IMG/VR virus record: IMGVR_UViG_2778261068_000006
Span: 1 to 21,391 of that record
Strand: one strand, 5' to 3'
DNA length: 21,391 nt
Origin: a virus
Lineage: Duplodnaviria; Heunggongvirae; Uroviricota; Caudoviricetes
Made by a program: the position numbers and the translations under genes. Under the pieces are notes generated by a model that had not been told where the DNA came from, searched no databases, and saw only the letters and a list, made by a program, of their open reading frames with translations. Positions 8,533-11,156 of the stretch are shown one piece after another. Each line of letters opens with the position of its first letter. Within the stretch, counting starts at the first letter, position 1.

Positions 8533-8898
8533 GGCTATTTCATTATATGTTATCTGTGCTGGAGTAATAAGTTTACGGTATTAAGAAGCATTTTAACGAA
8601 ACAATCAACTGACTTATCAGTAAAGATAGCATTGTAATGCGATCTGATTGGTATCATCAGGACGCTTGTTCAAAAAAGGAGCATTAGTTGATCTTGAAAT
8701 TTTGCTCAAAATATCTAGCCTCTTGTTTAACTGCCAACTTTTGGGGGCAGTACACTCTGATGCTACACTCCTTGCAAGTTTCATTACCCCGACGTAAACA
8801 TTTATGACAGTTGCTGATTTCAAACGTCCTAAGTTGGAGCTCCCAAACGGGGCAAACAAACTACTATTACACTCTTGTTGTGCACCATGTTCCGGTGA

Positions 8899-9387
8899 AG
8901 TGATGGAGACTCTTCAGGCCTCAGGAATCGAGAACAACACGGTGTAGCGTTTATCGATGCTGATTACGACACTGACAACTGGTTTGAGCGAGCCAAAGGA
9001 ATGGAATGGGAGACCGAACGTGGGAGGCGTTGTACTATGTGTTTTGACATGCGTTTTGAGCGGACAGCGCTGTACGCCGCTGAAAATGGTTTCAGTGTGA
9101 TCAGCAGTTCACTGGGCATTTCACGCTGGAAAAATATGCAGCAGGTTAACGACTGCGGACGGCGAGCTGTCGCACATTATCCGGGAATTGTGTACTGGGA
9201 TTATAACTGGCGCAAGCAGGGGGGCTTGTCCCGCATGATTGAAATCAGCAAACGCGAACAATTCTATCAGCAGGAATATTGTGGCTGTGTGCATTCTCTG
9301 CGCGATACCAATCTACACCGCAAATCTCAGGGACGCCCTCTTATCAAAATTGGTCAACTCCACTACGGTAAAGAAGAGAAGGAGTGA
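8899..9387 (+). pseudogene. Probable 5'-truncated gene fragment encoding a Cys-rich protein (CxxC ... CGC motifs); family uncertain (possibly DUF208/QueH-like, unverified)
   Basis: Open frame runs from 8899 to stop at 9387 but the first start codon is ATG 9001; upstream in-frame sequence ([20 protein letters not shown]) looks coding yet has no start; abrupt AT-rich junction at about 8880. Confidence 0.4.
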
Positions 9388-9580
9388 TTTTATGGATCAC
9401 CTTTCTGATTGATTTCATATTGGCGAGGTTACGGGAGTTAAGTAGAATTGCTGCGGGTGCTTGAGGCTATCTGTCTCAGGCATGAATGCCAAAAGGCAGA
9501 TAGAGAAAAGCCCCAGTTAACATTACGCGTCCTGCAAGACGCTTAACATTAATCTGAGGCTCAATCTATGAACGGCAAAT

Positions 9581-10654
9581 CTAGGTTAGCCTCTTACGTG
9601 CCGAAAGGCAAGGAGTTGTATGGGTCCACCACATATTGCAATTTTTGTTCTCTCTTAAAATATATTCCACGGGTGTCATTAGCGCGAGCGCCTTATGGGG
9701 CCTTTTGCTGTTATACAGCACCAGATATTCCGCCAGCTTCTGATTAAATAGCGCCAGATCTTCAAAGAGTAAAATCTCATTAAATTCAATAAACTGCTCT
9801 CTTAACGTCCGGTTAAAACGTTCACAGATAGCGTTCATTTTTGGCGTGTAGGGATAGGTCCAGAGGTGTTTGATAGCGGCTTCCTGCAGCGTTTTGTCGA
9901 AGTTTCCCAGGAACTCTTTTCCGTTATCTGTGATTATCTGGCTGATACCGACCGGGAACAACCGGGCTGCGCGGCTGAAGAAGTGATTGACGATATCACT
10001 GTTGAGTGACGGCACAGCCAGCGCCAGCGCGTAATTGCTGCATTCGTCGATCATGGTGATGACATAGCGACGCAGTTCGCCCATTCTGAGCTCAATGGCG
10101 TCCATCCCAATGAGCTCACCTGTCTTTACCGGGCGATAGTGCTTTGGCCTGCGGGGTTTGGCAGACCGCTTTTTGACAAGCAGTGCCTTCCCCCGCGATC
10201 CCAGACGCACAGGTATCATCCGCATTTTATCATGTGCGGCAGCGATCATTCTGCCGATGGTGGAAACACTCGGACAGGCCAGATAGCGCTGTTCGCACCA
10301 GGGCTTCAGGCGAACAAAAATCTGCTCTTTACCGAGGTTCGGCAGCTCTGTCCTGAGGCGTCGAATCTCTTTCAGCACATCGGGATGCCAGTGTTTTTTT
10401 CGTCGCACCAGAGGTGCCTTACTGTGCGGGATTAGCCCCTCAGGTCCTTCCTTGTTCAGTAACTGACGCCACCAGTAAAGCGTGCGGCAGGACACGCCAA
10501 AGGCTTCAGAAGCCGCAGAAATACCGTGTTTATCCCAGAAGTGCAGAGCCTTCATTCTCATTGTTGCTGTATCAGCCATCACTGAAAGCCTCAACGCATA
10601 ATCGGCCGTTTGGTAGTACTTAGGATAGCCAACCATCAGATGCTGCATTTGCAT
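9581..10654 (-). CDS. DDE transposase (HTH + rve integrase-core), IS481-family-like
   Basis: 357-aa ORF; HTH GISAASEAFGVSCRTLYWWRQ; catalytic triad candidates D (MIDECS), D (ITDNGKEF), E (NAICERFNRT); likely true start at internal Met (MADTATMRMK, about 10579). Confidence 0.8.
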   Translation of the reverse strand: MQMQHLMVGYPKYYQTADYALRLSVMADTATMRMKALHFWDKHGISAASEAFGVSCRTLYWWRQLLNKEGPEGLIPHSKAPLVRRKKHWHPDVLKEIRRLRTELPNLGKEQIFVRLKPWCEQRYLACPSVSTIGRMIAAAHDKMRMIPVRLGSRGKALLVKKRSAKPRRPKHYRPVKTGELIGMDAIELRMGELRRYVITMIDECSNYALALAVPSLNSDIVNHFFSRAARLFPVGISQIITDNGKEFLGNFDKTLQEAAIKHLWTYPYTPKMNAICERFNRTLREQFIEFNEILLFEDLALFNQKLAEYLVLYNSKRPHKALALMTPVEYILRENKNCNMWWTHTTPCLSARKRLT

Positions 10655-10702
10655 AGTGCAATTTCCCCTTACTTATCCTGAGGTAATTGCAATATCTCTG
10701 TG
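9581..10702 (-). mobile_element. Insertion sequence, IS481-family-like (single-ORF DDE transposase); boundaries approximate
   Basis: Transposase ORF plus candidate imperfect terminal inverted repeats CACATATTGCAATT (9630-9643) and AATTGCAATATCTCTGTG (10685-10702); no clean target-site duplication found, so ends are uncertain. Confidence 0.6.
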
Positions 10703-10725
10703 AACTTACACAGGAGAAGCAGGCT

Positions 10726-10881
10726 ATGAAGCAGCAAAAGGCGATGTTAATCGCCCTGATCGTCATCTGTTTAACCGTCATAGTGACGGCACTGGTAACG
10801 AGGAAAGACCTCTGCGAGGTACGAATCCGAACCGGACAGACGGAGGTCGCTGTTTTCGTAGACTACGAATCTAGAGAGTAA
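10726..10881 (+). CDS. hokD: Hok/Gef-family type I toxin (HokD-like)
   Basis: 51-aa product MKQQKAMLIALIVICLTVIVTALVTRKDLCEVRIRTGQTEVAVFVDYESRE matches the Hok family (single TM, conserved LCE.R..G..EVAA/VF); SD aggag at 10712-10716. Confidence 0.85.
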   Translation: MKQQKAMLIALIVICLTVIVTALVTRKDLCEVRIRTGQTEVAVFVDYESRE

Positions 10882-10950
10882 GAGTGACCAGGCGGGAGAG
10901 TAATCTCCCGCCACCTCTGATATGTCAGGCATCCTCAATGCACCCGCACT

Positions 10951-10976
10951 TAACCCGCTTCGGCGGGTTTTTTGTT
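10951..10976 (+). terminator. Rho-independent terminator downstream of hok
   Basis: aacccgc-ttcg-gcgggtt hairpin followed by TTTTTTGTTGTTT; preceded by 9-bp-stem hairpin ggcgggaga/tctcccgcc at 10891-10912 (hok mRNA 3' fold-back-like). Confidence 0.8.
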
Positions 10977-11156
10977 GTTTATTTTTAGTGGGGTTGATCT
11001 TTTTGATTGCGTCATCACGTTTGCCTGTAAAGGCGTCGCGGATGTATTGAACAGATAATGAGCCAACATAGAATCAAAAATTCTTAAGTAGCGCGCAGGG
11101 AGAAGATGGATGGACCCCAAACAGGGGAGTGCTATTTATCTGGAAGGATTCTGTTG

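Follow-up and report, generated by a model that had tools for sequence, protein, structure and literature searches.

The window analysed in this study is a stretch of 21,391 nucleotides from a virus of the Caudoviricetes (IMG/VR record IMGVR_UViG_2778261068_000006, positions 1 to 21,391), in which an insertion sequence (IS) of the IS481 family stands within a locus of the toxin gene hok and its antisense RNA gene sok. The IS split a hok/sok locus of the hokD type, and the leader with mok and sok was displaced, not deleted. The insertion site was most likely set by promoter targeting, here of the promoter of sok (P_sok), a view that we hold with considerable confidence. Disruption of a hok locus by an IS is of a kind known since 1999, and strains already sequenced, Escherichia coli E2348/69 among them, carry the window allele. 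The part worth following is the apparent promoter-directed target choice of an IS481-family lineage.

Two halves of one hok/sok locus

Left of the IS, positions 9420-9616 keep the hok promoter (P_hok), tac, the Sok target, the start of mok and the whole Sok promoter and gene, and on the right positions 10712-10977 keep just hok's Shine-Dalgarno sequence (SD), the hok open reading frame (ORF), the fold-back inhibition element (fbi) and the terminator (Table 1). When 9400-9610 was joined in silico to 10712-11000, a contiguous match of about 94% identity was found in 3,880 of 5,426 complete E. coli genomes. The joined halves align base for base with the uninterrupted loci of E. coli W and UK_Dog_Liverpool; such an alignment had been proposed as a check in an earlier interpretation of the window made from its letters alone (hereafter the sequence-only reading), and it placed the insertion point at the hok SD. 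The elements tac and fbi, located on opposite sides of the IS, form a duplex of -24.7 kcal/mol (RNAduplex), and in the minimum free energy fold of the reconstructed 420-nt mRNA the 5' and 3' ends are closed, with nucleotides 1-12 paired with fbi. By this complementarity and the end-closing fold the halves are thus recognised as one locus.

The displaced leader was matched by the Rfam family RF01794 'sok' (9455-9622, plus strand, 105.8 bits, E = 1.7e-23, gathering score 59), which models the hok leader in sense orientation through the hok SD and ATG, and it aligns end to end with the uninterrupted loci of the two strains named above. P_hok was the sole sigma-70-like site obtained from a scan of 9350-11050 and is kept in uninterrupted alleles. 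According to the sequence-only reading the mok/sok region had probably been removed or displaced, of which displacement stands and removal does not, the region being complete at 9420-9616. Its description of the hok SD, ORF, fold-back hairpin and terminator as intact downstream agrees with our results, all of them being present. A complete leader still attached to hok, named there as the observation that would speak against disruption, was not found: 14 nt remain between the IS tip and the hok ATG, instead of the roughly 24 nt estimated from an IS end at about 10702.

The mok gene has its SD (GAGG) at 9556-9559 and its ATG at 9568, and in the window it continues into the IS as a fusion, mok', with a stop codon about 980 nt 5' of hok. 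In the reconstructed locus mok is in frame with hok and forms a 19-codon N-terminal extension. An arrangement in which leader and toxin would share one contiguous transcript, with mok crossing the hok SD and start, exists in the reconstruction only and not in the window; since the contiguity of mok and hok is lost, the window locus is a disrupted member of the hok/sok type. The two genes are in frame in the window, UK_Dog_Liverpool and E2348/69 alleles, and in the E. coli W allele mok is shifted by 2 nt into an overlapping frame, as in plasmid R1, so that the frame of mok is not conserved among close alleles.

The promoter on the minus strand at 9583-9611 was assigned to sok because the same layout (TCTCC-TTGCCG-17-TAAGAT-7-+1), with the -35 hexamer directly next to the complement of the hok SD, precedes the annotated 5' end of K-12 sokB. 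Its region is almost invariant across 8 alleles. The 5' end of the predicted Sok RNA was placed from the position of the -10 hexamer, with sokB as the model, and is accordingly a putative one; the fold of 9577->9495 reaches -34 kcal/mol (z = -5.8), and none of 200 shuffled sequences was equally stable.

The reconstructed locus resembles hok/sok (parB) of plasmid R1, the reference among type I toxin-antitoxin systems. It has P_hok, the tac/fbi pairing, a mok frame that extends across the hok SD, P_sok on the other strand in the region of this SD, a Sok RNA bearing a 5' tail and a terminator hairpin, and a Hok of about 50 amino acids (aa). Unlike R1, the window locus is situated in a prophage, has mok in frame with hok and is split by an IS of 1.1 kb. 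On the E. coli K-12 chromosome, hokA is reported to be inactivated by IS150, and hokC and hokE by IS186 (Pedersen & Gerdes 1999, via PMC12214031, PMC7232551). As in those loci, the IS of the window lies near and not inside an intact hok frame, parts it from regulatory elements that it needs, and is missing from versions of the locus in other strains. Unlike them, it belongs to the IS481 family, is inserted between the leader and the hok SD and not at the positions of IS150 or IS186, and occupies a site that is used in many hok families and is explicable by the Sok promoter.

Table 1. Features of the split hok/sok locus and of the inserted element (window coordinates; TSD, target site duplication).
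Feature	Position	Strand	Details
hok promoter	9420-9448	plus	-35 TTGGCG, 17 nt, -10 TAGAAT; 6 nt 5' of where the Rfam match starts
hok mRNA 5' leader, displaced by the IS	9455-9616	plus	tac 9455-9466, Sok target region, mok start
Predicted Sok antisense RNA	9503-9575	minus	single-stranded 5' tail, long hairpin, U-run; ends approximate
mok' fusion ORF	9568-9747	plus	16 Mok codons and 43 from the TSD and the antisense strand of the IS
Sok promoter	9583-9611	minus	-35 TTGCCT 9611->9606, 17-nt spacer, -10 TAACCT 9588->9583; 5 nt from the IS tip
Left TSD copy	9611-9616		AGGAGT, one mismatch to the right copy
IS481-family insertion sequence	9617-10711	minus	1,095 bp; BLAST matches end at both tips
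Transposase ORF	10654->9581	minus	357 aa: 346 IS-encoded, 11 and stop from the TSD and the Sok promoter
Right TSD copy = hok Shine-Dalgarno	10712-10717	plus	AGGAGA
hok toxin ORF	10726-10881	plus	51 aa, intact; PF01848 E 4.3e-23; NCBIfam Hok family E 2e-14
fbi (fold-back inhibition) element	10933-10945	plus	complementary to tac 9455-9466
Intrinsic terminator of the hok transcript	10952-10977	plus	stem 10952-10969, 7 bp, 5 GC pairs, and T-run

The insertion sequence, its ends and its transposase

Both tips of the IS, 9617 (TGTATGGG...) and 10711 (...CTTACAC), were set by comparison with five copies elsewhere, which are located beside ppiC (UTME-14), ldrA (D1) and yegH (RM9513, 130119) and on an IncF plasmid; their tips are identical to those of the window IS, and 6-bp target site duplications (TSDs) such as ATTTAT and ACAAGG accompany them. 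In all, 6-bp TSDs were found at four independent sites of the IS. The tips, TGTATGG... and ...CTTACAC, belong to terminal inverted repeats that are imperfect and have ATATTGCAATT in common (9617-9643 and 10685-10711). Members of the IS481 family have a length of about 1-1.3 kb, inverted repeats starting with TGT and short direct repeats of the target (ISfinder criteria), all of which the element displays. The presence of an IS481-like element directly upstream of an intact hok, as asserted by the sequence-only reading, was borne out, IS481 being the best-scoring profile of the transposase and hok being matched by PF01848. The span given there, 9581-10725, had to be corrected to 9617-10711, being 36 nt off on the left and 9-14 nt off on the right: the left limit is the stop codon of the transposase and not an IS end, and the second candidate end near 10725 proved wrong, copies elsewhere ending at the equivalent of 10711.

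The hok SD (AGGAG, 10712-10716) survived intact because it is itself the duplicated target and forms the right TSD copy. A perfect duplication, AGGAGA/AGGAGA, was found in E2348/69 and four other hokD-type loci with the same insertion. The deviating AGGAGT beside the transposase-distal tip also occurs in at least two unrelated loci, one of an R1-like hok type and one of the relE-spacer type, which suggests that this change is a recurrent feature of insertion or repair rather than a random later mutation.

The transposase was scored with 221.5 bits by the NCBIfam profile of IS481 (NF033577), slightly missing its curated cut-off of 224, and IS3 followed next with 98 bits. The Pfam domains rve, rve_3, HTH_28 and HTH_32 mark it as a DDE transposase with an N-terminal helix-turn-helix, and the annotation pipeline PGAP named several alleles 'IS481 family transposase'. 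No stop codon closes its ORF within the IS: the last IS-encoded codon, ACA (Thr346), is placed right at the tip, from which the frame continues into the flank for 33 coding nucleotides and a stop codon. Counted from the tip in the same frame, the third codon consists of T-G-N of the -35 hexamer in the target. A target of the form TTGAnn supplies a TGA stop and a protein of 348 aa (UTME-14, ISKpn28-like sites); the Sok -35 hexamer TTGCCT is read as Cys, and the ORF continues to a TAG overlapping the Sok -10 hexamer. Annotated lengths elsewhere (348, 362 and 372 aa) differ with the flank, and together with the 357 aa of the window they are explained by this position of the third codon.

A 14-nt inverted repeat, ATAGTGCAATTTCC / GGTAATTGCAATAT, was noticed in the window at 10653-10695, between the transposase start codon and the tip; its arms are 86% complementary and contain the TTGCAAT motif of the IS terminal repeats, and it could serve as an additional site of transposase binding or of regulation. 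The element is complete and apparently active.

Insertion relative to sigma-70 promoters

Additional copies were collected from IMG/VR by the transposase protein, and from IMG/VR and metagenome contigs by a conserved 26-nt end, ATTGCAATATGTGGTGGACCCATACA, which is common to the window IS and to relatives of 75% identity labelled ISKpn28-like. The resulting set comprises at least 206 IS-end junctions in at least 58 flank clusters, with 45 non-hok clusters among the matches listed, to which the following counts of flanks refer. The flank at the transposase-distal end shows a pattern of 5 nt, TTGnnn, 17 nt and a -10-like hexamer (TAnnnT), for example ataaa-TTGACA-17-GATAAT 5' of ppiC, gagta-TTGAAA-17-TAAATT, cactc-TTGACT-17-TATCGT and ggatt-TTGCTG-17-TATACT. 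TTG was present at offset 6-8 in 20 of the 45 non-hok clusters, where 0.93 were expected (binomial p = 4e-22); no other offset had it in more than 5. Similarly, a promoter (-35/-10) score of at least 8/12 was reached at that offset in 22 of the 45 clusters and in 0-4 at other offsets, and 11 of the 20 TTG sites carried TAnnnT at a spacing of 16-18 nt (6.9% expected, p = 1.5e-8). At the opposite IS flank no TTG enrichment was detected (0/15). Among the non-hok insertions verified by a perfect TSD, the TTG of the motif was found in 6/7 and a TSD ending in T in 7/7, the final T of the 6-bp duplication being the first T of the -35 hexamer.

The same register was found in hok loci. In at least seven sequence types of hok/sok leaders, with at least four types of Hok protein, neither the relative base at which the IS is situated nor its orientation differs, and the Sok promoters of the targeted types read TTGCCT...TAACCT, TTGCCT...TACTCT, TTGCCT...TATCCT, TTGCAA...CATACT, TTGATT...TACTCT, TTGCGC...TATCCT (R1-like) and TTGCTC...TAACCT. 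Strain D1 has the IS tip 40 nt 5' of the annotated 5' end of rdlA, at ccttg-TTGTAA-17-TATTCT with the TSD ACAAGG. This copy (NZ_CP010134.1 347255-348349) is located 13 nt 5' of the ldrA start codon and 5 bp 5' of the rdlA -35 hexamer; ldrA, of which rdlA is the antisense RNA gene, is hence a second type I toxin that was parted from its leader likewise. Recognition of the duplicated 6 bp as such was rejected: the TSDs are diverse (ATTTAT, ACAAGG, GAGCAT, GAGTAT, CACGCT, CACTCT, AGGAGA), and they have a single base in common, the T with which the -35 hexamer starts.

From these patterns we infer that the transposase-distal end would insert in one orientation, 5 bp 5' of a sigma-70 -35 hexamer, and that in hok loci the target would be P_sok, which is on the opposite strand and has the complement of the hok SD as its upstream edge. 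Target choice would then involve recognition of the promoter or of promoter-bound RNA polymerase. With P_sok as the target, the exact position, the orientation and the recurrence of the insertions at hok loci are accounted for. In a more general form, held with moderate confidence, the window IS and its ISKpn28-like relatives would form a lineage within the IS481 family for which sigma-70 promoters are the targets. Its members would insert in one orientation, 5 bp 5' of the -35 hexamer and with the core spared, would have a transposase gene without its own stop for which consensus TTGAnn targets supply TGA, and would repeatedly and precisely disconnect toxins from their leaders while the antitoxin is spared.

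Several observations weigh against promoter targeting. About half of the non-hok flanks have no TTG at the offset, many of these have no verifiable TSD and look rearranged, and some flank clusters may be homologous sites. One TSD-verified site, CTAAAT/AGATC, has no promoter-like motif, and the IS is also found at the K-12-type junction of relE-spacer and hok, where the flank TGTCAA-17-ACCATC makes a poor promoter. Promoters were defined by motif throughout, the rdlA and sokB-type cases being backed by annotated RNA ends as well.

The K-12 locus itself merits a remark. In K-12 hokD (NC_000913.3 1645119-1645346) the similarity to complete hok loci starts exactly at AGGAGA, with AC as at the IS tip, and in metagenome contigs the IS was seen at the relE-spacer junction with an R1-type hok on the other side. 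An interpretation of the K-12 relE-hokD interval as an IS remnant was discarded, the 57-nt spacer being no more IS-like than shuffled controls, and no significant similarity of this spacer to hok leaders was found. A link between the IS and the 'major rearrangement' of K-12 hokD is possible.

Insertion 5' of sigma-A promoters is known from DDE transposons of the TnGBS/ISLre2 type (p-MULT 3) and of the ISKra4 group, a specificity that was called unique (PMC3942029). As in these elements, the window IS is oriented, keeps a fixed distance 5' of a housekeeping -35 hexamer, has asymmetric inverted repeats, and is found in mostly intergenic insertions by which the core of the promoter is spared. Its distance from the -35 hexamer is 5 bp, compared with 15-17 bp in the TnGBS/ISLre2 and ISKra4 groups, and its transposase is of the IS481/rve type and not Mutator-like (p-MULT), so that it resembles these elements in action without being a member. 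Unlike them, it occurs in Enterobacteriaceae and has a transposase ORF that lacks its own stop and ends in the target. Closest among named elements stands ISKpn28 (IS481 family, Klebsiella), with about 75% nucleotide identity, the same 31-nt end, the same length and a 6-bp TSD; a relative is labelled 'ISKpn28 family' by PGAP, and relatives on phage contigs are inserted in the same promoter register (gagtaTTGAAA-17-TAAATT). The window IS is a separate element, with 75% identity to ISKpn28 versus 98-100% among its own copies. ISKpn28 was reported at a fixed position 5' of the holin gene in Klebsiella prophages (PMC6908951). In the literature searched, which did not include ISfinder and TnPedia, neither promoter targeting nor a target rule was found for the IS481 family or ISKpn28.

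Should promoter targeting hold true, this lineage would join TnGBS/ISLre2 and the ISKra4 group as a third, unrelated example of DDE transposition directed to promoters, and one in genetically tractable enterobacteria. Promoter targeting would also explain insertions at one exact base in hok and ldr loci, make 'orphan' hok genes beside 'IS481 family transposase' genes recognisable as halves of split loci, and raise the question of how a promoter is read by a transposase, via DNA or via bound RNA polymerase.

Recurrence of the insertion, expression of hok and genomic setting

The IS was present at full length in 1,073 of the 5,426 complete E. coli genomes, in up to 38 places per genome; the expansion to 38 places was seen in E. 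coli IAL7255 (NZ_CM130730.1), and 15 places are reported for UTME-14 (NZ_CP157090.1). The right junction with hok was found in 55 and the left junction in 54 of these genomes (about 1%), among them enteropathogenic E. coli E2348/69, many porcine enterotoxigenic strains and one 420-kb plasmid. Within hokD-type loci the IS copies are 97.6-100% identical, and the flanks with leader and hok only 82-92%. No difference separates the E2348/69 copy from the one beside ldrA in D1 (100% identity). A near-identical IS in diverged flanks implies either repeated insertion at one site or shuffling of an IS-hok module.

The latter would require a single ancestral insertion in the hokD-type allele, the module being spread afterwards among mosaic lambdoid prophages by homologous recombination, and this we regard as possible but rather doubtful. 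Crossovers would be permitted by the sequence adjacent to the IS, which is identical in all alleles (30 nt on the left, about 120 nt on the right), the window IS is a mosaic of two IS haplotypes, and the upstream cargo genes vary between the prophages of junction carriers (HNH/AAA ATPase, SIR2 or queH). However, loci with leaders 8-18% apart (E2348/69 versus IAL7255 and JNEC-KY178) carry IS copies of 100% identity, identity with the ldrA copy of another strain points to recent activity, and the independent insertions in other hok families show a genuine hot spot.

Beyond E. coli, the exact junction gave no match in a scan of the GTDB species representatives, and a scan with the IS end retrieved only Escherichia ruysiae and one contig of a Streptomyces assembly. 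The latter (NZ_BAAAHF010000206.1, Streptomyces malaysiensis JCM 10672, 566 bp) matches the IS end exactly and is most likely assembly contamination. Short matches to the IS end in CFT073, UTI89 and pO157 were dismissed as IS debris in IS-rich regions, unrelated to hok.

As to the consequences of the insertion, hok is probably silent, judged from its sequence context, since its own promoter is gone and its coupling to mok is gone as well (mok' stops at 9747), and the Sok target has also been lost. In R1, mutations truncating Mok abolish Hok translation (PMC9841398). Sok would still be made, P_sok and sok being intact. For the biology of the prophage this would mean a disarmed toxin and an antitoxin RNA that may persist and could neutralise related hok mRNAs. 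The sequence-only reading had left it at hok being either silenced or driven by a promoter of the IS, of which silencing is the better supported, no outward sigma-70-like promoter having been found by the promoter scan in the IS end facing hok. As a candidate for an outward or hybrid promoter, TTGCAA at 10687-10692 was rejected: 16-18 nt further on only CACAGG, ACAGGA and CAGGAG are met, none of them a usable -10 hexamer.

Two results tell against silence or at least do not favour it. A terminator scan found no plus-strand intrinsic terminator inside the IS, which leaves room for read-through from P_hok to hok, and all readable hok ORFs adjacent to the IS are still intact, so that decay gives no proof of silencing. 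Against read-through, Rho termination would be expected to be favoured on some 960 nt of RNA that is not translated and lies antisense to the transposase gene. Activation of hok by the IS through an outward or hybrid promoter, or continued expression by read-through from P_hok, with a functional and perhaps deregulated toxin, nevertheless seems improbable to us. It would agree with the missing terminator, with the intact SD, ORF, fbi and terminator of hok in the window and an intact hok ORF beside every IS examined, and with TTGCAA being a reasonable -35 hexamer; yet this hexamer is followed by no acceptable -10, the scan gave no promoter facing hok, a transcript from TTGCAA would start at or past the SD, the coupling to a now truncated mok is lost, and unregulated Hok would kill, whereas stable inheritance of the allele is seen in about 55 genomes. 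Silencing of hok by the split is thus the preferred reading.

Still less probable is a chance landing beside hok that, as was proposed for IS150 and IS186 at hokA, hokC and hokE of K-12, was kept because the toxin was disarmed, with recurrence due to selection and inheritance only: inactivation of K-12 hok loci by insertion elements is on record (PMC12214031, PMC7232551) and IS150 was repeatedly inserted beside hok/sok and ldr loci in experimental evolution (PMC5419217), but if loss of the toxin were what is selected, insertions at many positions and either way round would serve, whereas the same base pair and orientation are used in at least seven hok sequence types and the same -35/-10 register at sites unrelated to toxins (the ppiC upstream region, Klebsiella-type phage sites; p = 4e-22).

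The window belongs to a lambdoid prophage similar to Rac and Qin, with genes for an exonuclease, a cI-type helix-turn-helix repressor, YdaT, DUF977, a broken queH, hok, DUF968, RusA and a Q antiterminator, and it shows 93-94% identity to E. coli prophages. No complete E. coli genome covering at least 80% of the window was found. An identical transposase protein, including the tail encoded by the flank, is present with the same neighbours in PTRR01000007.1 (GCA_002965665.1). Directly 5' of the hok promoter lies queH (epoxyqueuosine reductase, PF02677) at 8804-9387, split into ORFs at 8804-8947 and 9001-9387 and probably a pseudogene; in related prophages this slot is occupied by other cargo, namely SIR2, an AAA ATPase with HNH, or DUF262.

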